32,000 bases of DNA, taken from Mycolicibacterium smegmatis (GTDB lineage Bacteria > Actinomycetota > Actinomycetes > Mycobacteriales > Mycobacteriaceae). The stretch is from NCBI RefSeq assembly GCF_001457595.1, contig NZ_LN831039.1:4650001-4682000 (forward strand), in the 5' to 3' direction. Below are positions 6,109 to 29,764 of this stretch, in pieces; the stretch's first letter is position 1, and every line of letters begins with the position of its first letter. Both the position numbers and the translations under genes were made by a program. Under the pieces are notes generated by a model, which did no database searches, was not told where the DNA came from, and saw only the letters and a list, made by a program, of their open reading frames with translations.

Positions 6109-7524
6109 ATGACCAAACCCGACGCACCGCCCGTCGAGCGCGACACCCGGACTCGGCTCGAACAGCTGGGCTACAAACAGTCCCTCAAACGCCGCCTCAA
6201 CGTCGCCGAGGTTGTGGGATTGGCGATGGCGGACGTCTCGCCCACGATGGCCGTACTGTTCCTGTCCGCAGGCGTGTTCTTCGTCGGTGGCACCTTCTCG
6301 ATCGGCGCGGGCTTGATCTTGTCGGCCGTCGTCGTGCTCATAGCCCTGTGTCTGGCTGAACTTGCCGCGATGTTCCCGATCGCAGGCGGCATGTACTCAC
6401 TGGTGCAGAAGATCCTGCCGGGCCCGTTCGCCTGGGTCACGATGTTCAACTACCTGATTCAGGGAATCGTCATCCCGGCCAGCATCGCGCTGGGCATGGT
6501 CGCATTCTTGAAGGATCTGTTCCCCGCGCTCACGATGCCCGACCCTGTCCTGGCTGTCATCCTGCTGGCGGTCGCCACCGCCGTCGCACTCACCACGGTC
6601 GAGGTCGGTGCATGGGTGACCGCGATCATGGTCGTCGTCGAGTTGGCCGTCCTCGGCATCATCACGGTCGCCGCGTTTGCGCAGCCCCATCAGTCGATCG
6701 CCGAGGTGACCTTCCACCCGACGGTGCTCAGCAATGGCGAACTCATCGGCGTCGGCTTCGGGGTGATGCTCGCGACGCTGGCACCTGCCTTCAATGTGAT
6801 CAACGGTTACGACGCGTCATTGGGCTTCGCCGAAGAACTCAAGGGCGGCGAGCGCAAGATCGGTAAGGCAGTTGTCATCTCTGCGGTCCTGGCCTGTGTG
6901 TTCATCATGGTTCCGCTGACCGCCGCGGTGATCGCCGCCCCCGACCTCAAAGAGTTCTTCGAAGCCCCCTCTCCGGTGGTGTATTCGGTGGAGGCGTCCC
7001 TCGGCTCGAAAGCGGGCGCCATCGTCGACATAGGCGCCACCATCGCTTTGTTCAACGGAATGCTGGCGCTGCTCATGTATTTCGCGCGCGGTGTCTACAC
7101 CACTGGACGCGACCAGGCCTGGCCGCCTGCCGTCAACAGGTTGGTCGGCAAACTCAACCGCTTCCGCGCACCCGGCGCCGGGGTCATGGTGCTGGCTGTC
7201 CCCGCCGCGGTCCTGGTGTTCACCTCCGCGCTGAACTTCCTGATCCTCTTCGCCGGCACGGTGATCGCCGCGGTGTACTTCTGCATCGGACTGGCCGCGC
7301 TCTGGAGTCGCCGCAGCATGCCCGATGAGCCCCGGCCCTTCAAGATGCCGTTGTGGCCGGTGCCACCACTGATCGTCGTCATCTTCACCGGAGTCGCACT
7401 CGGCATGCAAGAGACCGACTATCTCATCGCCGAACTCATCTTGATCTGCCTGGCACTGGCGTGCTGGGCCGGATCGAAGCGATGGTCGCGCCCCGCCGCA
7501 CGTGATCATGACGTCGACGCCTGA
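6109..7524 (+). CDS. APC superfamily amino acid / polyamine-type permease
   Basis: 471 aa and strongly hydrophobic, with about 12 predicted helices by eye. Typical APC N-terminus (LKRRLNVAEVVGLAMADVSPT). GAGAGG RBS before the ATG. Confidence 0.85.
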   Translation: MTKPDAPPVERDTRTRLEQLGYKQSLKRRLNVAEVVGLAMADVSPTMAVLFLSAGVFFVGGTFSIGAGLILSAVVVLIALCLAELAAMFPIAGGMYSLVQKILPGPFAWVTMFNYLIQGIVIPASIALGMVAFLKDLFPALTMPDPVLAVILLAVATAVALTTVEVGAWVTAIMVVVELAVLGIITVAAFAQPHQSIAEVTFHPTVLSNGELIGVGFGVMLATLAPAFNVINGYDASLGFAEELKGGERKIGKAVVISAVLACVFIMVPLTAAVIAAPDLKEFFEAPSPVVYSVEASLGSKAGAIVDIGATIALFNGMLALLMYFARGVYTTGRDQAWPPAVNRLVGKLNRFRAPGAGVMVLAVPAAVLVFTSALNFLILFAGTVIAAVYFCIGLAALWSRRSMPDEPRPFKMPLWPVPPLIVVIFTGVALGMQETDYLIAELILICLALACWAGSKRWSRPAARDHDVDA

Positions 7525-7561: not shown

Positions 7562-8350
7562 GTGGTCACCGAAACCAGGACCACCCTCTACCAGAACCTG
7601 ACCTGGCCAGAGATTTCCGAGGCTGCGCACGACGGAACACCTGTCGTCATTCCCATCGGGGCCACCGAACAGCACGGGCATCACCTTCCGGTGTGCACAG
7701 ACTGGGTGCTGCCCGAACGCATCCTGCTGGAGGCCAGCAGGCACCGGCACTTCCTGGTCGGCCCGTTCATCCCGTTCGGGTACCGGAGCAGACCGGGAAG
7801 TGGTGGCGGGCAGCATATCCCGGGTACGGTATCGCTGCGGGCGACCACCTTCATGTCCATGTTGGAAGATGTTCTCGGCGAACTGATCCGCACCGGGTTC
7901 ACCAAGATCGTGTTGTACAACTGGCATTTCGAGAACAGCGGCTTCGTCTACGAGCCGGCGTTCATGGTCAGTGATCGGCACCCGGACGTGAAGATCGTCG
8001 TCATCGAGGATGTCAATCCGGAGTACACCCCTGAGCGGGTGGGACAGATCTGGCCGGACGAGTTCCCAGGTCTGGCATTGGAACACGCCGCGGTGATCGA
8101 GACCTCCTTGTGGATGCATCACTGTCCGGATCTGGTGCGCATCGGCGGCATCGCACCTGATCGCCCGCAACGTGTGGTCAACCACGATGTCCTCCCGATC
8201 GACCACAGGCTGTCCACCGCAAGCGGCGCGCTGTCCTCGCCGGTGCCCGCATCCGCCGACAAAGGCAAGCTGCTGACACAGTGGTTCGTCGAGCGGATCC
8301 TGAATGTGTTGGCGGACGAGTTTCCCACCACTGCCGGCGCAACAGGATGA
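7562..8350 (+). CDS. Creatininase (creatinine amidohydrolase) family protein
   Basis: Family signature VVIPIGATEQHGHHLPVCTDW. I prefer the GTG at 7562 because GGAAGGAG lies 7-8 nt upstream. The ATG at 7502, overlapping the permease by 23 nt, is the alternative. Confidence 0.85.
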   Translation: MVTETRTTLYQNLTWPEISEAAHDGTPVVIPIGATEQHGHHLPVCTDWVLPERILLEASRHRHFLVGPFIPFGYRSRPGSGGGQHIPGTVSLRATTFMSMLEDVLGELIRTGFTKIVLYNWHFENSGFVYEPAFMVSDRHPDVKIVVIEDVNPEYTPERVGQIWPDEFPGLALEHAAVIETSLWMHHCPDLVRIGGIAPDRPQRVVNHDVLPIDHRLSTASGALSSPVPASADKGKLLTQWFVERILNVLADEFPTTAGATG

Positions 8351-9300
8351 CCGCGGGCCCGATCGGGGCGGTGCCTGCCACCGAGGTCCCCAGATACGCA
8401 GGAAAAGCGACCTTCGCCAGGATCGCCGACATCCACGAAGTCGCCGACTATGACATCGCGATCCTCGGAGTGCCGTTCGATGGCGGAACGTCCTACCGAC
8501 CGGGTGCCCGATTCGGGCCGATGGCCGTACGGCAGGCCGCCAGAACACTCCGCCCGGACTTCCACGTCGAGTTAGGTGTCGCACCACTGCGGACCGTGCA
8601 GGTCGTCGACGCCGGGGACGTGACGGTCACGCCATATGACATCGAGACCGCGTGCACGCAGATCCAGGCACACGCCACCGAGATCCTCGGCGGCGCCGAC
8701 CGCAGGATCATCTCCATCGGCGGTGACCACACCATCGCACTGCCGAACCTACGAGCGTTGCACGCGGGTCACGGTCCGGTCGCCCTCGTACACTTCGACG
8801 CCCACCTGGACACCTGGGACACCTACTTCGCCGCGCCCGTCACCCACGGCACCATTTTCCGCAGAGCCTTCGAAGAGGGCCTCCTGGTCGAGGACCACTC
8901 GATCCACATCGGTATCCGAGGCCCGATCTATGACCGCGCGGACCTCGACGACGACGCCAGAATGGGGTTCCGGATCATCCGGGCGGGCGACCTGGACGTC
9001 GTCGGCATCGACGCCGCGGTCGACGCCGTGAAGCGTCGTGTCGGTGACACGCCGGTCTACCTGTCGGTGGACATCGACGTCCTCGACCCGGCGTTCGCCC
9101 CCGGGACGGGAACCCCCGAGTCCGGTGGACTGAGCGCTCGCGAATTGCTCGGCATGCTTCGGCGACTCAACGGCCTGAACCTGGTGGGCGCCGATGTTGT
9201 CGAGGTGGCTCCGGCCTACGACCACGCAGAGATCACGTCTGTCGCCGCCGCAACAGTGGTGTTCGATCTCGTTTCCCTGATGGTGAGAGGGTCCGGGTGA
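8347..9300 (+). CDS. Ureohydrolase (arginase/agmatinase/guanidino-acid hydrolase) family protein
   Basis: Mn-binding motifs GGDHTIALP, HFDAHLDTWD and SVDIDVLDPAFAPGTGTPESGGLS. The ATG at 8347 forms an ATGA overlap with the creatininase stop. Confidence 0.9.
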   Translation: MTAGPIGAVPATEVPRYAGKATFARIADIHEVADYDIAILGVPFDGGTSYRPGARFGPMAVRQAARTLRPDFHVELGVAPLRTVQVVDAGDVTVTPYDIETACTQIQAHATEILGGADRRIISIGGDHTIALPNLRALHAGHGPVALVHFDAHLDTWDTYFAAPVTHGTIFRRAFEEGLLVEDHSIHIGIRGPIYDRADLDDDARMGFRIIRAGDLDVVGIDAAVDAVKRRVGDTPVYLSVDIDVLDPAFAPGTGTPESGGLSARELLGMLRRLNGLNLVGADVVEVAPAYDHAEITSVAAATVVFDLVSLMVRGSG

Positions 9301-9347
9301 GCCGGGTGATCACGTCCGCCGTGAGTGCGGATCACGCGATGTGACAT

Positions 9348-9375
9348 TGTCTTGCGTATCGCGTCTTCCTAATGT
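9348..9375 (+). promoter_or_regulatory. Putative sigma-70-type promoter for the 9400-15650 operon
   Basis: TTGTCT (9348-9353), a 16-nt spacer, then TAATGT (9370-9375, fits TANNNT). GGAG at 9387-9390 lies before the ATG at 9400. This is a hexamer match only. Confidence 0.25.
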
Positions 9376-9399
9376 CGGGCGTATGCGGAGATTCGAAGG

Positions 9400-10416
9400 A
9401 TGAGCCGGGCCCGGCGCAGTGACGGTCCGGTGATCGACATCCACTGTCATCGCGAATGCGGGCCGGCCGCCGAGTTCATGGCCGACGCCGCGCGGGCAGC
9501 GGGAAAAGTGGCGCTGGGACACGGCAATCCGACCACCCAGGCGGTGAACCGGCGCCAACTCGCATTGATCCGGCCCAAGATGGACTTCCTCGACGTCCGG
9601 CTCGCCGACATGGACCGCATGGGCGTGGACATCCAGGCGGTCGCGGTCTCGGTGTACCAGTACTACTACTGGGCCGACGCCGAACTCGGTGCCAAGGTCG
9701 CACGGATCGTCAACGAGGAACTCGTCGAGTCGACATCGGCACACCCCGGCCGGTTCCTTCCACTGGGCACCGTGCCGCTTCAGGACACCGAAGCAGCGAT
9801 CGCCGAATTACGCTATCTGGCATCAGAACTCGGCATGCGCGGCATCGAAATCGGCACGCACGTCGAGGGTGAGGAGATCTCGAGCCCGCGGCTGGAACCG
9901 TTCTGGGCCGAGGTCGAGGCGCTCGGTCTCGTCGTCGTCATCCACACGCAGGGAGCCACGCACCCCCAGCGACTGGCAGACCACAATTTCGTGAACATCA
10001 TCGGCCACGCGTTCGAGGCCACGCTGGCCACCGCGCATCTCATCTTCGACGGTGTCGTGGCGCGCCACCCCGATCTGAAGATCGTCGTCGTGCACGGCGG
10101 CGGCTACCTGCCCGCGTATGCCGGACGCATCGACCACGGCTGGAATGCGCGCGACGACGTCCGCGAAGGGGTTCCCGAACTCCCAAGCCACTATCTGCGC
10201 AAGTTCTACTTCGACACCATGGTGTTCGAACCCGACCAACTCGAATACCTCATCGGCAAGTACGGCGCCGACCACGTCGTCCTCGGCACCGACTACCCGT
10301 ACGACATGGGTGACGACGATCCACTCGGGCTGCTCGGAGAAGTCCCCGGACTGGATCAGGCCAAGGTCGATCTCATCGCAGGCGGAAACGCCGCACGACT
10401 TCTGGGGTTGTTATGA
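9400..10416 (+). CDS. Amidohydrolase_2 (ACMSD/LigJ-like, COG2159-type) family protein
   Basis: N-terminal metal motif VIDIHCH. VVHGGGYLPAYAGRIDHGW and LGTDYPYDMG are typical of the family. Confidence 0.85.
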   Translation: MSRARRSDGPVIDIHCHRECGPAAEFMADAARAAGKVALGHGNPTTQAVNRRQLALIRPKMDFLDVRLADMDRMGVDIQAVAVSVYQYYYWADAELGAKVARIVNEELVESTSAHPGRFLPLGTVPLQDTEAAIAELRYLASELGMRGIEIGTHVEGEEISSPRLEPFWAEVEALGLVVVIHTQGATHPQRLADHNFVNIIGHAFEATLATAHLIFDGVVARHPDLKIVVVHGGGYLPAYAGRIDHGWNARDDVREGVPELPSHYLRKFYFDTMVFEPDQLEYLIGKYGADHVVLGTDYPYDMGDDDPLGLLGEVPGLDQAKVDLIAGGNAARLLGLL

Positions 10417-11555
10417 GCACACCACTACCTGCGCACGGCTCCGTCGGGCTCGCGGTCATCGGATGCGGCACGGTCGGCAGGATCCGCGCGATGCTGGCAC
10501 GGGAGTATCCCGGCATCGAATGGCTCGGTCTGTGCGACGTCGACGAGCAGGTCCTCAAGGACCTGACCGCCGACACCGATGCCGACTTCGCCACCACGGA
10601 CATCACCGAACTGCTGGCACGGCCCGAGGTGGGCGCGGTCATCATCGCGACCGATGAACGCGAGCACGTCGATCCGATCCTGCGTTCGGTGGAACTGGGT
10701 GTCCCGCTGTTCATCGAGAAGCCACTGGCCACCGATCCGGCGGACTCCGCTCGCGTGCTCGCGGCGATCACCGATGCCGGCGTCGACGCCGTCGTCGGCT
10801 ACACCCAGCGGTTCCGGCGACGATTCCAGACCGTCAAGCAACGCCTACGCGACGGCCAGATCGGTGATGTCACAACGGTCGTCACCCGGGCGTTCATGAA
10901 TCGCATGGTCCCGGAGGCCACCCTGCGGAAGGTGACGGACACGACCAACCTCACCCCCATGGTGGTATCGGGCACCCACAGCCTCGACATGTGCATGTGG
11001 CTGCTGGAGGGCCGAAAGCCGGTCGAGGTGTATGCGCGCTCCACCGACCGCACCCTGGGCCCGATCGGCACCAAGGACGGTACGTCGGGGATCTTCACGA
11101 TGGACGACGGCGTGGTGTTCAGCATGAACATCAACTGGGCGCTGCCGACGGTCTGGCCGGGCGCGGTGTACGGACTGGAGATCGGCATCGTCGGGACCCG
11201 CGGCGTGATCGACATCGAGGACACCCACCGCGACGTCATCCTCGCCTCCGAGATCGGGCAGCCTGCGGGATACAACAGCCGTGGATTCGAGCCACCCGCA
11301 CCCCGGCACGTGGATTTCGTGGGCAGCTATCCCCCGGGCGACGTATCGGACGGCATGTTGTGGGGCCCGATGCGCGAGGAGACCACCACCTGGTTCGCCC
11401 GGATCTGCCGCGGTATCAACACACCACACGCCACCGCGGCAGACGGCCACGCCAACCTGATCCACACCATGGCAATGGATTTGTCCTCGCGGACCGGCCG
11501 CCCCGTTCCCCTGCCGATAGACCCCGGTGAACTCCTCGCCGGACTCAAACCCTGA
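10413..11555 (+). CDS. Gfo/Idh/MocA family oxidoreductase
   Basis: N-terminal Rossmann fold LAVIGCGTVG and the EKP motif (LFIEKPLATD). ATGA overlap with the upstream gene. Confidence 0.85.
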   Translation: MSTPLPAHGSVGLAVIGCGTVGRIRAMLAREYPGIEWLGLCDVDEQVLKDLTADTDADFATTDITELLARPEVGAVIIATDEREHVDPILRSVELGVPLFIEKPLATDPADSARVLAAITDAGVDAVVGYTQRFRRRFQTVKQRLRDGQIGDVTTVVTRAFMNRMVPEATLRKVTDTTNLTPMVVSGTHSLDMCMWLLEGRKPVEVYARSTDRTLGPIGTKDGTSGIFTMDDGVVFSMNINWALPTVWPGAVYGLEIGIVGTRGVIDIEDTHRDVILASEIGQPAGYNSRGFEPPAPRHVDFVGSYPPGDVSDGMLWGPMREETTTWFARICRGINTPHATAADGHANLIHTMAMDLSSRTGRPVPLPIDPGELLAGLKP

Positions 11556-11572
11556 TTCGAAAGGACCCGGGC

Positions 11573-12652
11573 ATGCGCCAGATCAATCTCGGAATCATCG
11601 GAACCGGTTGGTGCGGCGGCATCCGCGCCGTCACGGCGTCGCGAAGCCCACTCGTCGCCGATCTGCATCTCGCCGAGATCAACCCGGCGCGGAGGGCCGA
11701 GATCACCGGACTGACCGATCCGACGTACGTCACCGAGCATTGGCAGGAACTCGTCGAGAATCCGGGCCTCGACGCGATCGTCGTCTCCGCCACACCCGAG
11801 GACCTGCACTACCCGATGACGAAAGCTGCTCTGGAAGCGGGCAAGCACGTGCTTCTCGAGAAGCCCGTGGCCGTGACCCTGGCCGAGGCCGACGAACTCA
11901 TCGCGCTGGCCGAGAGCGCCAACCTCAAGTTCACGATCGGTTACTCGCAGCGGTTCAACGACAAACAGGCCATGATCAAACGGGCCATCAACGACGGTAC
12001 ATTGGGGAACGTCACCAGCATCCTGCTGAGCCGCCACATCACACGATCGCTGGGCGCCAAGATCTCCTCGCGCACAAAGCTGTCCCCCGCTGCCATGGAA
12101 GCCACTCACGATCTCGATTTCGCGTTCTGGTGCCTTGAGCCACGCCGGCCCGTGCGGGTGTACTCGCAGAACGCCTGGGGCGTAAGGGCATCCACCCTCG
12201 GCTCACCCGACACCCAGTACCTGGTGGTGACCATGGACGACGGTGTGGTGGTGACGGTCGGCGCCGGCATGTCCCTGCCGCCGGGCTATCCGAACGCGTC
12301 GACGACCTGGATGGAGGTGATCGGCACCGAGGGCGCGGTGCTCGCCGACGCCAGCCACCGTGACATCGTGCTGAACACCGTGAGCAACGGCGTGCAATTC
12401 CCGTTGTCCACCATGCCCGGCGAATTCGTCGACCACGTGTACTCGGGGCCCATGGAACGCGAGACCACGCACTTCATCGAAGCCGTCGCCTGTGACCGCC
12501 CGGTCCTGGTGGAGGCACGACTCGCGCGCGTCACCATGGAGGTCTACCTGGCCGCCGATCTCTCCGCGCAGCGCAACGAAGTGGTGCACCTGCCGTTGTC
12601 CGAGGAGGACATCCTCCAGACGCAAGCCGAGACGGCCCTGAGCCGCGCATGA
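11573..12652 (+). CDS. Gfo/Idh/MocA family oxidoreductase (paralogue of the preceding gene)
   Basis: LGIIGTGWCGG, VLLEKPVAVT, AAAGGA RBS. Confidence 0.85.
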   Translation: MRQINLGIIGTGWCGGIRAVTASRSPLVADLHLAEINPARRAEITGLTDPTYVTEHWQELVENPGLDAIVVSATPEDLHYPMTKAALEAGKHVLLEKPVAVTLAEADELIALAESANLKFTIGYSQRFNDKQAMIKRAINDGTLGNVTSILLSRHITRSLGAKISSRTKLSPAAMEATHDLDFAFWCLEPRRPVRVYSQNAWGVRASTLGSPDTQYLVVTMDDGVVVTVGAGMSLPPGYPNASTTWMEVIGTEGAVLADASHRDIVLNTVSNGVQFPLSTMPGEFVDHVYSGPMERETTHFIEAVACDRPVLVEARLARVTMEVYLAADLSAQRNEVVHLPLSEEDILQTQAETALSRA

Positions 12653-24411: not shown

Positions 24412-24611
24412 ATCGAACAGTCAAGGGCCCGGCCGAACCTCGTGCATTGTCGTCGAACGTGAACTTCGCGGCCCGACGTGTCGGAATCCGTCACCGGTCA
24501 AGCGGGCCGTGTCCCCATGCGCCATCGATCCCCGCCCAGATTCACGAAGTCCGTGAGTGATTGCCGGGCGCCGCGCCCGTTCAATTGAGGGCGACAGTGC
24601 TACGACAGGAG

Positions 24612-25766
24612 ATGCTCGTGACCCAGGACTATGTGACCACCGGGGGTGGGGTCGACACGGACCTGTTCCGGCATGTCGCCGGCCACCTGGCAAGTGGCGT
24701 GACCGTCGTGACGACCCGCGCCGACGACCGTGACTACGGTATGACCGCCAGCTCGGTCACCTCCCTGTCGATGGAGCCGCCGATGATGCTGGCCTGCATC
24801 AACAACGCGGTGCCCACGGCGGCCGCCATCGAGCGCAGTGGCCGCTACACCGTCAACGTGCTGGGTCAGTCACACGCAGATCTCGCGCATCAGTTCGCCG
24901 CCCCGCGACCGGACAAGTTCGCCGGGGTGTCGGTCGAACGCGGGATCGCCGACGTGGTCATCCTGACCGACGCGATAGCCGCACTCGAATGCGAGGTGAC
25001 CGAACAGGTGATCGGGGGAACGCATTCGGTGTTCTTCGGATTCGTGGTGTCGGCGACCGCTCGCGACGGTGCTCCGCTGACCTACTTCCGTGGCGGCTTC
25101 GGCAGATTCGAGTTCGAGTGCAACGACAACGCCTACGCGCGGGCCCGGGACATGGTGCTCAGCCGGGTGTTCACCGCCGAGCAGGTGGTCACGGTCGACG
25201 AACTCGCCGACCGTCTCGAAGGTGACCGGGCGCAGGCGTTCTACGCGCTCACCCGGCTCGCGGCCGACGGTTTGGTGTTGCGAGACCCACAGCGGGGCTA
25301 CGTCATCGCACCGTTCGACATCAAGACATCCGACTACACCTTCGAGGCGCGGCTCGCGATCGAGCTCGGTGTCATCGACTGCGTCGGGGACCATGCCGAC
25401 CCCGCCCAGCTCGCGATCGCCCGCCACCACCTCGAGACGATGTCGCGGCACCTCGTGGGTGACCGGTTCGAGGACTTTCATGCCTACCTCGACGCGAACT
25501 ACGCATTCCACGAAGCGATCGTCGCATTGACCGGGAACCCGTTGCTGATCGCGGCGTTCGGCTCGCTGAGCATCAAGAACGTCATGATGCGCAGCTTCGG
25601 GAACACGGCCCAGTCGTCCACCGCATTCCTCGCAGCCCAGCGCGACCTCCTCGAGGCACTCGAACGTGGCGACACCGTGGGCGCCCGTGAAGCCGCACGG
25701 AGTTACTGTGCGCTCGCCAAAGCCCGCACGCGCCAGCTTCTCTCGCTCACCGGCGGCCTGTTCTAG
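24612..25766 (+). CDS. Fusion protein: flavin reductase-like (HpaC/NmoB-type FMN-binding) domain + GntR-family wHTH + FCD ligand-binding domain
   Basis: Reductase-like part: FRHVAGHLASGVTVVTT...GMTASSVTSLSMEPPMMLACI...THSVFFGFVV (about nt 24657-25109). wHTH: VTVDELADRLEGDRAQAFYALTRLAADGLVLR (about 25131-25310). FCD: FEARLAIELG...YAFHEAIVALTGNPLL (about 25332-25730). The start is ATG 24612 or GTG 24618 (AGGAG at 24607-24611); the TTG at 24561 is unlikely. Confidence 0.75.
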   Translation: MLVTQDYVTTGGGVDTDLFRHVAGHLASGVTVVTTRADDRDYGMTASSVTSLSMEPPMMLACINNAVPTAAAIERSGRYTVNVLGQSHADLAHQFAAPRPDKFAGVSVERGIADVVILTDAIAALECEVTEQVIGGTHSVFFGFVVSATARDGAPLTYFRGGFGRFEFECNDNAYARARDMVLSRVFTAEQVVTVDELADRLEGDRAQAFYALTRLAADGLVLRDPQRGYVIAPFDIKTSDYTFEARLAIELGVIDCVGDHADPAQLAIARHHLETMSRHLVGDRFEDFHAYLDANYAFHEAIVALTGNPLLIAAFGSLSIKNVMMRSFGNTAQSSTAFLAAQRDLLEALERGDTVGAREAARSYCALAKARTRQLLSLTGGLF

Positions 25767-26602
25767 GCCAGCCGGGTGATCTCCACGACGACGTCGAGGT
25801 CAGTGGAGCCCTCGCCCGAGTAGATTCCCTTGAGCGGCGCCACATCCGAGTAGTTGCGGCCCACACCGACGCTGACGTACTGCTCGTTGATCTCGGAGTC
25901 GTTGGTGGGGTCGTAATCCCACCAGCCGCCGGTCCACGCCTGCACCCACGCATGGCTCTGGCCGTCGATGGTGTCGCCGACGGCCGCCTCGCGTGTGGGA
26001 TGCAAATAGCCCGAGACGTAACGTGCAGGAATTCCCATGCCACGCAACATGATCAACGACAGATGCGCGAAATCCTGGCATACGCCTTTGCCCTCGCGCA
26101 GCGCGTCGAGCCCCGACGAGTGCACGCCCGTGGTGCCGGGCACGTAGTCCAGTTCACTGCGCACCCATTGCGCGGCCGCGATCACCGCCTCATACGGGTC
26201 GTGCTCCTTGGCAATACTCCGGCCGACGCGTTCGATGCGCTTGCTGCACGGTGTGTAGTGCGTGGGGGCGAGCACCTCGTCGAACCGGTCGATGACCGCC
26301 TCGGTCCGCAGATCGTCCCAACTGACCGGCTCTTCGGGTTTCTCACCGACCTCGGTCTCGACCACCGACGACGACGTCACCTCGAGTTCGGCGTGTGGCG
26401 CATGCAGGTCGAACGCCGTGACCGCGGTCCCCCAGTAGTCCACATACCGGTAGGACCGGGTGGCGGGAACCGTCTCGACGCGGTTGAGGATCACGTTCTG
26501 CCGCGAGTCCGAACGCGGCGTCAGCCGAACCTCGTTGAACGACGCGGTCACCGGCGACTTGTAGGCATAGCCCGTCGAGTGCACCACGCGCAAACGCCAC
26601 AT
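25763..26602 (-). CDS. Transglutaminase-like family protein (Bact_transglu_N + transglutaminase core; Rv2409c-like)
   Basis: N-terminus MWRLRVVHSTGYAYKSPVTASFNEVRLTP. Apparent Cys/His/Asp triad in GVCQDFAH, SHAWVQAW, WDYDPTN. Confidence 0.9.
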   Translation of the reverse strand: MWRLRVVHSTGYAYKSPVTASFNEVRLTPRSDSRQNVILNRVETVPATRSYRYVDYWGTAVTAFDLHAPHAELEVTSSSVVETEVGEKPEEPVSWDDLRTEAVIDRFDEVLAPTHYTPCSKRIERVGRSIAKEHDPYEAVIAAAQWVRSELDYVPGTTGVHSSGLDALREGKGVCQDFAHLSLIMLRGMGIPARYVSGYLHPTREAAVGDTIDGQSHAWVQAWTGGWWDYDPTNDSEINEQYVSVGVGRNYSDVAPLKGIYSGEGSTDLDVVVEITRLA

Positions 26603-27580
26603 CTAGATCTCACCTTCCTCGATGACCAGTGCGTCCCCGCGCCCCGCGTCGGTCCACGCGACCCAGGGTGCCGAGTGGAAGTACTGCTGCGCCAACGCTT
26701 CTCCGACGTCACGGCAAGTCTTCTGCAGACCGGCCAGGCGCGTCTCCAACGATTCCAGCAGCGCGCCCGGCTGCAGGAACTCCAGCTCACTGCGGGCCCG
26801 GCCCAGCAGTCGCTGCGCCTCGTCGGTGGCACCGAGACGGTTGTGCGGCCGGTTGAGCAACTCGTCGAGGTTGTGTTCGGCCAGCCGCAGCGAGTGGAAA
26901 ATCGACCGAGGGAACAACCGGTCGAGCATCATGAACTCGACGACTCGCCCGGCGTCGAGCACGCCACGGTAGGTGCGCAGGTAGGTGTCGTGCGCGCCGG
27001 CCGAGCGCAGCAGCGTCACCCATGCGGGTGACGACGCGCTGTCGCCCACCCGCGAGAGCAGCAACCGCACGGTCATGTCGACACGCTCGATCGCGCGGCC
27101 GAGCACCATGAACCGGTAGCCGTCGTCACGGCTCAAGGTCGAGTCGGCGAGCCCGGCGAACATCGCGGCCCGGCCTTCGACGTACGACAGGAACTCGTGG
27201 GGGCCAAGGCGTTTCGCGGCCCGCTCGCGCTCGGCGAGCGCGTTGTAGGTGGTGTTGAGGCATTCCCAGATCTCGGTCGAGGTCACCTCGCGGGCGCCGC
27301 GGGCGTTCTCGCGGGCGGCGGAGATGGCGTCGACGATCGAAGCGCCGCCATACGTGCCGCGGCTGAACGCGACGATGTCGGTCAGCGACCACACGTCGAG
27401 CCGCTCGCGGGGCGGGTCGATCCCCAGCACTCGCAGCAGCGTCCGCGACGCCTGGTCCGGGTCGACGCTGGAGTCCTCCAGCAGTTGGTGCACCGTCACG
27501 TCGAGGATGCGTGCGGTGTCGTCGGCCCGCTCCACGTAGCGGCCGATCCAGTACAACGATTCGGCATTGCGCGCCAGCAT
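26603..27580 (-). CDS. Alpha-E domain protein (DUF403; Rv2410c-like)
   Basis: MLARNAESLYWIGRYVERADDTARILDV is the hallmark N-terminus. Its stop TAG directly abuts the transglutaminase ATG. Confidence 0.9.
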   Translation of the reverse strand: MLARNAESLYWIGRYVERADDTARILDVTVHQLLEDSSVDPDQASRTLLRVLGIDPPRERLDVWSLTDIVAFSRGTYGGASIVDAISAARENARGAREVTSTEIWECLNTTYNALAERERAAKRLGPHEFLSYVEGRAAMFAGLADSTLSRDDGYRFMVLGRAIERVDMTVRLLLSRVGDSASSPAWVTLLRSAGAHDTYLRTYRGVLDAGRVVEFMMLDRLFPRSIFHSLRLAEHNLDELLNRPHNRLGATDEAQRLLGRARSELEFLQPGALLESLETRLAGLQKTCRDVGEALAQQYFHSAPWVAWTDAGRGDALVIEEGEI

Positions 27581-27589
27581 CGGATTTCC

Positions 27590-29263
27590 TTACTGCTGCT
27601 GCTGTTGCTGCTGGGACGAGTTGTCTGCGGCGCTGTCGGCCTTGGGGCCTCTGCCCGACTTGGGCAGTGCCCGCACCACTTCGGCGGCCGCGAGCTCGCG
27701 GTCGGCGACCGAGGCCCGCGAGGCCAACACCCAGGTGTCTTTGGAACCGCCGCCCTGGCTGGAGTTCACCACCAGGGAGTTCTCAGGCAGCGCCACGCGG
27801 GTCAGCCCACCCGGCAGCACCCACACGTCGTTGCCGTCGTTGACCGCGAACGGGCGCAGGTCGACGTGGCGCGGAACCAGCTTGTTGTCGATCTGCGTCG
27901 GCACGGTCGACAACTGCATCACCGGTTGGGCGATCCAGGCGCGGGGATCGTTGCGGATCTTCTTGGCGATCGTGGTGAGTTCCTTGGGCGTCGCGTCCGG
28001 GCCGAACACGATGCCGTAACCGCCGGAGCCCTCCACGGGTTTGATGACGAGCTCCTCGATGCGGTCGAGAACCTCCTCGCGCTCGTCGTCGAGCCAGCAG
28101 CGGTAGGTGTCGACGTTGGCCAGCACGGGTTTCTCACCGAGGTAGTACTCGATGATGGTCGGCACGTAGGTGTAGACGAGCTTGTCGTCGCCGACACCGT
28201 TGCCGACCGCGCTGGAGATCACCACGTTGCCTGCGCGCGCGGCGTTGAGCAGACCCGCGACGCCGAGCACCGAATCCGGGCGGAACTGCATCGGGTCGAG
28301 GAACGCGTCATCGATGCGGCGGTAGATGACGTCGACCTGGCGCTCCCCCTCGGTGGTGCGCATGTAGACGACGTTGTCGCGGCAGAACAGGTCGCGGCCC
28401 TCGACGAGTTCGACGCCCATCTGCCGCGCCAGCAGCGAGTGCTCGAAGTACGCAGAGTTGTAGACGCCGGGGGTGAGCACGACGACCGTGGGATCGGCCA
28501 CGTTGGTGGGGGCCGCGTTGCGCAGCGCCCTCAGCAGGTGCGACGCATAGTCGCCGACGGCGCGCACCCGGTGCGTGGCGAACAGGTTCGGGAAGACCCG
28601 GGCCATGGTGCGCCGGTTCTCCATCACGTAGGACACTCCCGACGGAGACCGCAGGTTGTCCTCCAGCACCCGGAAGTCGCCCTTGTCGTCGCGGATCAGG
28701 TCGATGCCCGCGACGTGGATGCGCACCCCGTTGGGCGGGACGATGCCCGCGGCCTCACGGTGGAAGTGTTCACACGACGTCACCAGCCGGCGCGGGATCA
28801 CGCCGTCCCGCAGGATCTCCTGCTCGCCGTAGATGTCGTCGAGATACATCTCGAGGGCTTTGACGCGTTGCCGGATGCCGCGCTCAAGACGCGACCATTC
28901 GGCCGCCGAGATCACCCGCGGAACGAGGTCGAGCGGGAAGGGGCGCTCCTGGCCGGACAGCGAGAACGTGATGCCTTGGTCGGTGAAGGCGCGGCCGAGC
29001 GCGTCGGCGCGAGCCTGCAACTCCGACGCGTCGGTGGGAGCGAGCTCGGCGAAGATGCCCTTGTACGGTCCGCGGACGTTGCCGGACGCGTCGAACATCT
29101 CGTCGAACGCCTTCGCGTAGTGACCCAGTTTGTTGTAGCCGTCGAACACGCCCCGCTGTTTGACGCGCGCGCTGCTCCCGGTGGCGTTGCGCGATGACCG
29201 CGCCGTCTCGGTCGGCAAGACTTTCTCGGCTCCTCGTGCTCGGGTGCGGGTTGGGGCGTCCAT
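27590..29263 (-). CDS. Circularly permuted type-2 ATP-grasp protein (Rv2411c-like amidoligase) ending in seven glutamines
   Basis: Family-typical sequence throughout (FDGYN...AFDEMFD..., ...VIYRRIDDAFLDP..., ...VGNGVGDDKLVY...). I prefer the ATG at 29263 over the TTG at 29329, but neither has a strong RBS. Confidence 0.85.
   Translation of the reverse strand: MDAPTRTRARGAEKVLPTETARSSRNATGSSARVKQRGVFDGYNKLGHYAKAFDEMFDASGNVRGPYKGIFAELAPTDASELQARADALGRAFTDQGITFSLSGQERPFPLDLVPRVISAAEWSRLERGIRQRVKALEMYLDDIYGEQEILRDGVIPRRLVTSCEHFHREAAGIVPPNGVRIHVAGIDLIRDDKGDFRVLEDNLRSPSGVSYVMENRRTMARVFPNLFATHRVRAVGDYASHLLRALRNAAPTNVADPTVVVLTPGVYNSAYFEHSLLARQMGVELVEGRDLFCRDNVVYMRTTEGERQVDVIYRRIDDAFLDPMQFRPDSVLGVAGLLNAARAGNVVISSAVGNGVGDDKLVYTYVPTIIEYYLGEKPVLANVDTYRCWLDDEREEVLDRIEELVIKPVEGSGGYGIVFGPDATPKELTTIAKKIRNDPRAWIAQPVMQLSTVPTQIDNKLVPRHVDLRPFAVNDGNDVWVLPGGLTRVALPENSLVVNSSQGGGSKDTWVLASRASVADRELAAAEVVRALPKSGRGPKADSAADNSSQQQQQQQ
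27593..27613 (-). repeat. Trinucleotide (CAG/CAA)7 tract encoding the C-terminal QQQQQQQ of the ATP-grasp protein
   Basis: The plus strand reads ctgctgctgctgttgctgctg immediately before the stop (tta at 27590-27592). Confidence 0.9.
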
Positions 29264-29503
29264 CCACACATGCTGCACCACCCGTGACGTTTTTGCCCGG
29301 CCAACGCAAACCGCGTTTCGGCAGGCCAACGCGGGGTTGCGGTGGTACTACAGTCAGGCGTAGGTATGCCCACTTGCGGCCTCGGCAATCGCTCTTTTGG
29401 GGGTTCGGGGCCCTCACTGGTACCCTGAACAGTCGCTGCCCACAGTGCGGGCGGACCCACAGACTTCGGTAACCCCAGCTAGAGATTCAGAAGGAACTTC
29501 TTC

Positions 29504-29764
29504 GTGGCCAACATCAAGTCGCAGATCAAGCGCATCCGCACCAACGAGCGTCGTCGCCTGCGTAACCAGTCGGTGAAGTCGTCGCTGCGTACGGCGATCC
29601 GTGGCTTCCGCGAGGCCGTCGACGCCGGCGACAAGGACAAGGCATCCGAGTTGCTACACGCCACCAGCCGCAAGCTGGACAAGGCCGCCAGCAAGGGTGT
29701 CATCCACCCGAACCAGGCCGCCAACAAGAAGTCGGCGCTGGCCCTGGCCCTCAACAAGCTCTGA
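29504..29764 (+). CDS. rpsT: 30S ribosomal protein S20
   Basis: [33 protein letters not shown]... is unmistakably S20. The GTG start has AGAAGGA 9 nt upstream. Confidence 0.97.

Follow-up and report, generated by a model that had tools for sequence, protein, structure and literature searches.

In the current analysis, we examined a 32,000-nucleotide (nt) stretch of the Mycolicibacterium smegmatis genome (NCBI RefSeq assembly GCF_001457595.1, contig NZ_LN831039.1, positions 4,650,001 to 4,682,000; hereafter the window), in which three genes encoding an ATP-grasp protein, an Alpha-E protein, and a transglutaminase-like protein lie head to tail on the minus strand and are tightly packed. The locus is the M. 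smegmatis copy of an already known, widespread triad that lacks a defined function. Through comparison with related loci, we identified a recurring fourth element that, to our knowledge, is unreported in the published description of the triad, namely a C-terminal tail containing a polyglutamine (polyGln) run, borne by one subunit of the three and, in the window, by the ATP-grasp protein.

Profile hidden Markov model searches assigned CP_ATPgrasp, Alpha-E, Bact_transglu_N, and Transglut_core, as had been proposed in an earlier reading of this DNA made from its letters (the sequence-only reading). The ATP-grasp protein matched both CP_ATPgrasp_1 (PF04174; E = 7.6e-167) and CP_ATPgrasp_2 (PF14403; E = 2.8e-165), the Alpha-E protein matched PF04168 over its full length (E = 9.7e-79), and the transglutaminase-like protein matched Bact_transglu_N (E = 1.5e-21; amino acids [aa] 4 to 82) and Transglut_core (E = 5.4e-26; aa 128 to 232); NCBIfam held no model for any of the three proteins. 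Valas and Bourne (2008) noted the triad (COG2308/COG2307/COG1305) beside Anbu, and Iyer et al. (2009), as quoted by later papers, read it as a peptide-synthesis or tagging system. The recognition of a comparative-genomics triad that sometimes occurs with Anbu is therefore confirmed by the literature, and the idea of a posttranslational modification or small-peptide system is not new, having been proposed, on the testimony of those later papers, already in 2009. In the full-text literature that we searched, we found no substrate, product, or biochemical function for the triad, in agreement with the earlier statement that no substrate, product, or phenotype is established. Compared with the published triad/Anbu operon, the present locus shares the three Pfam families, the gene order, the tight coupling, the Cys-His-Asp triad, and induction by nitrogen limitation; it differs in having no Anbu, in the 45-aa ATP-grasp tail with its seven glutamines, and in a lineage-specific adjacency to rpsT.

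The distribution of the tail is the principal observation of this study. Gln runs were scanned for against a background of 1253 long open reading frames (ORFs; 504,000 aa) from 160 loci plus the window, and tails were counted in the 116 loci in which all three genes are complete, with a threshold of at least four Gln. In 103 of the 116 loci (89%), one subunit, and only one, had such a run in its C-terminal tail; the bearer was the ATP-grasp protein in 79, the transglutaminase-like protein in 20, and the Alpha-E protein in 4, and in no locus did two subunits carry one. Runs of at least five Gln were confined to the triad, with 58 of 58 in triad proteins and none in the other ORFs. Forty-six of these lie in ATP-grasp tails, 11 at the extreme transglutaminase C terminus (in Bacteroidota and Acidobacteriota and in metagenome loci without a classification), and 1 near the end of Alpha-E; a shorter run occurs near the transglutaminase C terminus in the Chloroflexota locus L078, and the motif ...QQEEQQQQ... 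is found on Alpha-E in ten other loci. A tail on the ATP-grasp protein is typical of the actinomycetes. Actinobacterial ATP-grasp tails extend 18 to 108 aa beyond the catalytic core, whereas most non-actinobacterial orthologues end 2 to 6 aa after it. All of the 120 closest ATP-grasp homologues possess a variable low-complexity tail past the core; apart from four frameshifted entries, nearly every one of them terminates in or close to a Gln run.

Both CAA and CAG codons are used within the runs, even where the genome is rich in GC. These mixed codons, together with the occurrence of the run at the 3' end of the last gene in other phyla, argue that selection acts on the protein rather than on the RNA, and we accordingly rejected the possibility that polyGln marks an RNA-level (CAG-repeat) signal for translational coupling. 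The terminal Cys seen on many actinobacterial ATP-grasp tails was likewise rejected as a functional residue. It is a by-product of an 8-nt overlap, ATGCTGA (gap of -7; e.g., in L018, L033, and L048), in which the "C-stop" of ATP-grasp is read against the "ML" start of Alpha-E; both the Cys and the ML start are forced by this overlap, which thereby mimics residue conservation.

The tail also covaries with the catalytic residues of the transglutaminase-like protein. Cys-His-Asp was kept in 103 of 103 tailed loci, and 3 of the 13 untailed loci have an altered triad (S-H-D, T-H-D, and V-Y-D; Fisher P = 0.0011, not corrected for phylogeny). Among untailed Aeromicrobium loci, the transglutaminase gene is mutated in L024 and L037, is split over three reading frames in L064, and is absent from L060. 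Two further Aeromicrobium loci, L026 and L043, are nested among the untailed ones in a well-supported tree and yet retain a short Gln run; the triad of L043 is intact, and the L026 contig ends before the transglutaminase gene. Given this nesting, tail and catalysis appear to have been lost together two to three times independently. As a separate observation, the transglutaminase-like protein of the proteobacterial-type locus L144 (positions ~6366 to 7190 of that locus), where Anbu is adjacent, has a Ser nucleophile (S-H-D) and no polyGln tail.

The catalytic residues themselves are well conserved. The transglutaminase-like protein contains the motifs GVCQDF (Cys175), SHAWV (His217), and YDPTN (Asp231), and these residues align with the Cys/His/Asp motif positions (GVC, HA, and D) of PDB 3ISR and of Pseudomonas aeruginosa TgpA (6G49). 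His217 and Asp231 were found in 33 of 33 orthologues from five phyla and Cys175 in 32 of 33, so that what had been described as an apparent triad now has the support of both alignment and conservation. We did not retain 3ISR as a guide to the tails of this family; it is a distant paralogue and therefore uninformative on that point.

Coordinates of the features discussed here are collected in Table 1.

Table 1. Features of the triad locus and its flank, in window coordinates
Feature	Position (nt)	Strand	Remarks
ATP-grasp ORF, longest form	27590-29329	-	TTG start at 29329; 579 aa
ATP-grasp gene (MSMEG_4570 orthologue), probable extent	27590-29263	-	ATG at 29263; 557 aa
CP_ATPgrasp catalytic core	27791-28921	-	Pfam envelope, aa 137-513 of the 579-aa ORF
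Low-complexity C-terminal tail of ATP-grasp	27593-27727	-	45 residues, LASRASVADRELAAAEVVRALPKSGRGPKADSAADNSSQQQQQQQ
Seven-Gln run, extreme C terminus of ATP-grasp	27593-27613	-	Codons cag cag caa cag cag cag cag
ATP-grasp/Alpha-E junction	27581-27592	-	Stop TAA (27592-27590) within TAAGGA (27592-27587); AAGGA, 6-nt spacer, Alpha-E ATG (27580-27578)
Alpha-E gene (MSMEG_4569 orthologue)	26603-27580	-	325 aa; Pfam Alpha-E
Alpha-E/transglutaminase junction, TAGATG	26600-26605	-	Stop TAG (26605-26603) directly abuts start ATG (26602-26600)
Transglutaminase-like gene	25763-26602	-	279 aa; Bact_transglu_N + Transglut_core
Bact_transglu_N	26357-26593	-	
Transglut_core	25907-26221	-	
Cys175 codon	26078-26080	-	Catalytic triad
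His217 codon	25952-25954	-	Catalytic triad
Asp231 codon	25910-25912	-	Catalytic triad
Conserved block upstream of ATP-grasp gene	29264-29300	-	Mycobacterial alignment
rpsT	29504-29764	+	Divergent from triad; holA and comEC-like gene beyond

With regard to the gene calls, every statement that the sequence-only reading made on the packing of the genes and on both junctions holds on re-reading; the ATP-grasp and Alpha-E ORFs share a reading frame. Its extent of 25763 to 29329 stands as far as the genes are concerned but not for the start at 29329, where the TTG is merely the longest possible start. The ATG at 29263 is favored by homologues and by the upstream alignment; the equivalent ATG starts the M. 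goodii homologue and an NCBI annotation of 557 aa, and in database annotations the ATP-grasp protein is anywhere between 519 and 579 aa long. The Alpha-E sequence matches exactly that of strain mc2 155, and the transglutaminase-like sequence that of strain MKD8. As holA is MSMEG_4572, adjacency gives rpsT as 4571, ATP-grasp as 4570, and Alpha-E as 4569.

Gene order was judged in the 160 loci, and synteny in 80 genome loci retrieved with the ATP-grasp protein as the query. The order ATP-grasp, Alpha-E, transglutaminase was found in nearly every locus long enough to judge, across Actinomycetota, Bacteroidota, Acidobacteriota, Proteobacteria, and Chloroflexota; the exceptions are L060, which is without the third gene, and L067 and L072, in which the third gene is displaced or undetected. 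In most of the 80 loci, the ATP-grasp and Alpha-E genes are separated by -8 to about +16 nt (with overlaps of 1, 4, or 8 nt in other actinobacteria), and the distance from the Alpha-E to the transglutaminase gene mostly falls between -4 and about +50 nt. Since such short distances recur, the tight junctions are not due to chance, and the tight coupling remarked on earlier is confirmed. The same cannot be said of the description of the operon as fixed beside rpsT. The rpsT-holA-comEC neighborhood was found only in Mycobacteriales, including the slow grower M. gordonae (L006), and in five other actinobacterial loci (L027, L051, L058, L059, and L061); it was absent from Kribbella, Amycolatopsis, Pseudonocardia, Arthrobacter, Microbacterium, Actinoplanes, one Nocardia, and all non-actinobacterial loci. 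M. tuberculosis carries the same trio (Rv2409c-Rv2411c) beside rpsT (Rv2412). Because the synteny is lineage restricted, we rejected the rpsT linkage as a clue to function.

Three Pfam-confirmed Anbu (PF00227-like) queries matched neither the window nor any of the actinobacterial loci by tblastn, and clustering of neighboring ORFs produced no further conserved partner gene in actinobacteria. Anbu is adjacent to the triad in L144, L145, L151, L155, and L159. In the three Acidobacteriaceae-type loci L071, L130, and L152, it lies upstream of the ATP-grasp gene instead of following the transglutaminase gene, and the transglutaminase-like protein ends in polyGln; this joint presence led us to reject the notion that polyGln and Anbu are mutually exclusive alternatives.

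Natural ATP-grasp::Alpha-E fusions form 23 independent protein clusters (P0156 to P0178) of 808 to 918 aa with a linker of ca. 25 aa, which by the Rosetta-stone argument implies that the two act as one unit. An AlphaFold2 model of one fusion homologue (predicted local distance difference test [pLDDT], 85.5; predicted template modeling score [pTM], 0.80) superposes on PDB 3N6X with a template modeling score of 0.90. 3N6X, a close orthologue that was deposited as a "putative glutathionylspermidine synthase," matches the M. smegmatis ATP-grasp protein at E = 4e-155 (aa 72 to 535) and stops at the end of the core. The apparent fusions in L042 and L046 (both Nanopore metagenome-assembled genomes) and in the ENA entries P0017, P0034, P0081, and P0095 look like frameshift artifacts and were not used, and P0449, an Alpha-E plus Bact_transglu_N fusion, is a single doubtful case. 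We propose that Alpha-E is the obligate partner subunit of the ATP-grasp ligase. Its invariant residues include M1, L2, R4, W11, R14, Y15, E17, R18, R24, W105, N109, G143, G161, and E165, forming an Arg/Glu/Trp block that begins at residue 1, and R14-Y15-x-E17-R18 and E165-R166 are invariant or nearly so in sets of 34 and 144 Alpha-E sequences. The AlphaFold2 model of the protein is all-helical (pLDDT, 87.9; pTM, 0.87), and neither sequence searches nor Foldseek found a solved relative. In Mycobacteriales, Alpha-E has an additional low-confidence C-terminal extension (residues 304 to 325; 26603 to 26668, minus strand) that ends in an acidic motif (...VIEEGEI, EGEL, or ESEL); other lineages are without it.

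Published expression data tie the triad to nitrogen status. In nitrogen-starved M. smegmatis, MSMEG_4570 rose 4.0-fold and MSMEG_4569 3.3-fold, and the two were 2.9- and 3.7-fold higher, respectively, in the wild type than in a glnR mutant. A nitrogen array study lists msmeg_4567 as induced 3.1- to 3.2-fold, and msmeg_4568 is not in its list; the transglutaminase gene may bear either tag. The orthologous operons of Burkholderia are targets of NtrC/sigma-54, being 6- to 9-fold lower in an ntrC mutant, and are nitrogen regulated together with amino acid and polyamine transport genes. In Pseudomonas putida, the operon was the most induced under nitrogen limitation, and in marine metagenomes the triad domains covary with domains of urea metabolism. 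For M. smegmatis, a direct action of GlnR was rejected: chromatin immunoprecipitation sequencing of GlnR lists no peak between MSMEG_4501 and MSMEG_4635, and we saw no canonical GlnR box (Gn2AC-n6-GnAACA, or AC-n9-AC) in the 240-nt intergenic region. With neither peak nor box, the dependence on GlnR is probably indirect.

The region upstream of the ATP-grasp gene offers some further hints. A -10-like CAGCAT (29275 to 29270) lies 6 nt before the ATG, and in an alignment of nine mycobacterial upstream regions G..GCA.CAT is invariant, 6 to 7 nt before the ATG or GTG start; judged from this position, the transcript may be leaderless. A scan of the region for the sigma-70 consensus gave no match. 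Terminator-like sites were no more numerous than expected by chance and were set aside, as was a riboswitch or small RNA leader, for which Rfam gave only a subthreshold ASdes match. The latter, to the ASdes TB small RNA, lies antisense within the ATP-grasp gene (28551 to 28621, plus strand; 21.6 bits against a gathering threshold of 40, E = 0.18) and is most likely due to chance. At ~29285 to 29345 (minus strand), we also noticed a tandemly duplicated block resembling GTTGGCC-N-(G/A)AAAC, which is not a canonical GlnR box; it is present in two copies in M. smegmatis and L004 and in one copy in other mycobacteria.

How might these proteins work? The reading we favor, to which we give a probability of roughly 0.4, is that the operon specifies a nitrogen-limitation-responsive three-protein machine for both making and breaking amide bonds that involve glutamine or gamma-glutamyl groups, in which the polyGln tail would serve as a tethered substrate or pseudosubstrate. 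The ATP-grasp protein, resembling glutathione synthetase and glutathionylspermidine synthetase and complexed with Alpha-E, would activate a carboxylate as an acyl-phosphate and join it to an amine. The Cys175/His217/Asp231 enzyme would attack a Gln side-chain amide to give a thioester, which could then be resolved either by release of ammonia (Gln to Glu) or by gamma-glutamyl transfer to an amine. The flexible tail, which in this case comprises the last 45 residues of the ATP-grasp protein, would present such side chains from within a putative ternary complex. The complex may thus act on itself (self-modification, priming, or switching) and not solely on free substrates. Transglutaminases and protein-glutaminases canonically act on Gln side chains. 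The third protein shares the Transglut_core fold and an aligned Cys/His/Asp triad with TgpA (6G49), with the putative cysteine protease 3ISR, and with protein-glutaminase; unlike the microbial transglutaminases, it is cytoplasmic, contains a Bact_transglu_N domain, and is encoded with a ligase. The family also includes proteases and amidases, and the protein described here may be a transamidase, a deamidase, or a protease. Should the tail be a real substrate, it would point to a new cycle of protein modification in bacteria and would constitute a prokaryotic parallel to eukaryotic transglutaminase-polyglutamine chemistry.

A bolder possibility, which we put forward more tentatively, is that the tail is a fourth functional element in an ancient system, one that has moved during evolution between the ATP-grasp, transglutaminase-like, and Alpha-E subunits, and that it serves as a tethered arm for the enzymes of that system, taking part in a reversible, ATP-driven Gln/Glu (or isopeptide) switch tied to nitrogen status. 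The transglutaminase-like enzyme would deamidate or cross-link the Gln run, and ATP-grasp/Alpha-E would re-amidate or extend the carboxylates. If true, this would be a bacterial posttranslational modification cycle of an undescribed kind. RimK offers a partial likeness, in that it too joins an ATP-grasp ligase to a homopolymeric acidic or amide tail at a protein C terminus; however, RimK is not circularly permuted, adds Glu to S6 posttranslationally, and has no Alpha-E or transglutaminase, while the Gln run described here is genome encoded.

A number of observations weigh against the tethered-substrate reading. The loci were drawn by similarity to two actinobacterial queries, which limits the sample; the co-loss cases come from one genus, and the frameshifts in L064 could be long-read errors. 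Six proteobacterial-type loci (L144, L146, L159, L069, L070, and L067) have no polyGln tail, as has Arthrobacter L020, where the triad is intact; since the genes are kept in untailed loci, the tail is not universally required. The untailed proteobacterial-type loci often have Anbu, or else a transglutaminase fused to DUF2126 or to a class-II glutamine amidotransferase. In one Burkholderiales locus (L069, 10617 to 14030), for example, a protein of 1137 aa combines the transglutaminase domains with the "putative amidoligase" DUF2126, and a second complete triad follows. In L060, from an Aeromicrobium metagenome-assembled genome, the ATP-grasp and Alpha-E genes (8001 to 12170) are retained without the transglutaminase gene and are followed directly by rpsF (encoding ribosomal protein S6), ssb, and rplI; the ligase therefore has a function independent of the third protein. 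The few Gln residues per protein cannot matter as a nitrogen source, and any role of the tail must therefore be regulatory or structural. The fusion model provides a fold match and global scores and defines no interface. Finally, pull-downs with the Yersinia proteins detected no complex. The Yersinia ATP-grasp orthologue displayed basal phosphate release from ATP.

Among the alternatives, the one that fares best, though we consider it unlikely, is a small-molecule pathway in which ATP-grasp/Alpha-E makes a free gamma-glutamyl-type peptide or amide (compare glutathione, glutathionylspermidine, and E-64 precursors), the transglutaminase-like enzyme is an amidase, and polyGln is only a docking or regulatory appendage. 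After 3N6X, the proteins closest in structure (Foldseek E = 6e-10 to 1e-5) are glutathione and homoglutathione synthetases of the eukaryotic type, Cp1B (a fungal E-64 ligase), and the glutathionylspermidine synthetase/amidase (GspSA) of Escherichia coli, all of them carboxylate-amine ligases for small acids or gamma-glutamyl peptides. In GspSA, a ligase is joined to a cysteine amidase that targets the same amide bond, and the operon could be viewed as a split form of this enzyme. The circularly permuted ATP-grasp fold is common to both; on the other hand, sequence identity is only 12 to 17%, the hydrolase here is a separate protein of transglutaminase fold and not a fused CHAP domain, and there is the Alpha-E partner. 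A universal metabolite would also suit the 51 to 54% identity that the ATP-grasp protein retains with its non-actinobacterial orthologues, compared with only 24 to 37% for Alpha-E and the transglutaminase-like protein, as well as the retention of ligase and Alpha-E in L060 and the coregulation with amino acid and polyamine transport genes. What such a pathway leaves unexplained is the Gln run on a single subunit in 89% of loci and its joint loss with catalysis. The metabolite itself is hypothetical, and a lysate containing Rv2411c did not synthesize gamma-aminobutyric acid-trehalose, the single product tested.

Less probable still, in our estimation, is a glutamine-dependent amidotransferase analogous to carbamoyl-phosphate synthetase, in which a glutaminase of transglutaminase fold feeds ammonia to the ATP-grasp synthetase, Alpha-E couples the two, polyGln plugs or regulates the glutaminase site, and an N-terminal nucleophile (Ntn) hydrolase, Anbu or class-II glutamine amidotransferase, substitutes in some lineages. 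A Francisella protein (L067, 2824 to 4578) unites a class-II glutamine amidotransferase (GATase_4) with Bact_transglu_N and Transglut_core, and this fusion is another pointer to glutamine-amide chemistry, for the favored reading as well. In chemical terms, a Cys-His-Asp thioester mechanism is the equivalent of that used by a glutaminase, Anbu is an Ntn hydrolase without detectable peptidase activity, and regulation by nitrogen status would be in keeping with such an enzyme. Nevertheless, the ammonia channel and the complex would be putative, it seems counterintuitive to induce a consumer of glutamine when glutamine is scarce, and a tethered Gln run is not something that the model requires.

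We are at least as skeptical of a ubiquitin- or Pup-like system of tagging and turnover, the view attributed to Iyer et al. (2009) by those who quote it, in which the ligase tags its targets (or does so with its own tail), the transglutaminase-like enzyme removes the tag, and Anbu or the 20S proteasome degrades the product. Only the logic resembles that of pupylation: a disordered polypeptide with a terminal Gln, a possible Gln-to-Glu deamidation, and ATP-dependent carboxylate-amine ligation. The tail recalls the GGQ at the end of Pup, and Anbu is adjacent to or upstream of the triad in the eight loci named above. However, ATP-grasp is not of the PafA/Dop fold, and the operon contains no Pup-like small tag protein and no PafA/Dop-fold ligase or deamidase; the Gln tail resides on an enzyme subunit, where the run is often not at the extreme C terminus, and any link to the proteasome would be putative. 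Moreover, neither the window nor the actinobacterial loci contain Anbu, which had no peptidase activity and formed no complex with the operon proteins.

Highly improbable, and largely refuted, is the housekeeping (translation-linked) role that the sequence-only reading drew from the position of the operon, for although the start codons of the divergent rpsT and of the ATP-grasp gene are ca. 240 nt apart, the synteny spans the Mycobacteriales, and L060 places ligase and Alpha-E directly upstream of rpsF-ssb-rplI, the operon is not fixed beside rpsT (most other actinobacteria, and every other phylum sampled, having lost the synteny) and that inference consequently fails, while the genes are induced by nitrogen starvation, transposon sequencing in M. 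tuberculosis marks Rv2411c as a "growth-advantage" region, and the orthologous operon of Pseudomonas is reported to be dispensable.

To return to the tethered-substrate reading, the tail on one subunit, its co-loss with catalysis, and the ligase/Alpha-E fusions provide new handles by which function becomes directly testable. The family is very large (Alpha-E alone matches 5114 clusters at 50% identity), extends over many phyla, and is among the most strongly nitrogen-regulated operons where examined, and yet no function has been assigned to it since 2008-2009. M. tuberculosis contains the triad family twice.

On the side of the triad away from rpsT, a plus-strand ORF (24561 to 25766) in which Pfam recognizes a flavin-reductase domain fused to a GntR/FCD regulator is convergent with the transglutaminase gene and shares 4 nt with it where the two stop codons meet (25763 to 25766). 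Farther downstream of the triad, positions 1 to 24500 of the window hold an accessory catabolic island with two PucR-type regulators, an amino acid permease, an amidohydrolase, several GFO/IDH/MocA oxidoreductases, an Ldh_2 dehydrogenase, and an ABC permease. With this island downstream, the triad lies where a conserved core block (comEC-holA-rpsT) gives way to variable DNA.

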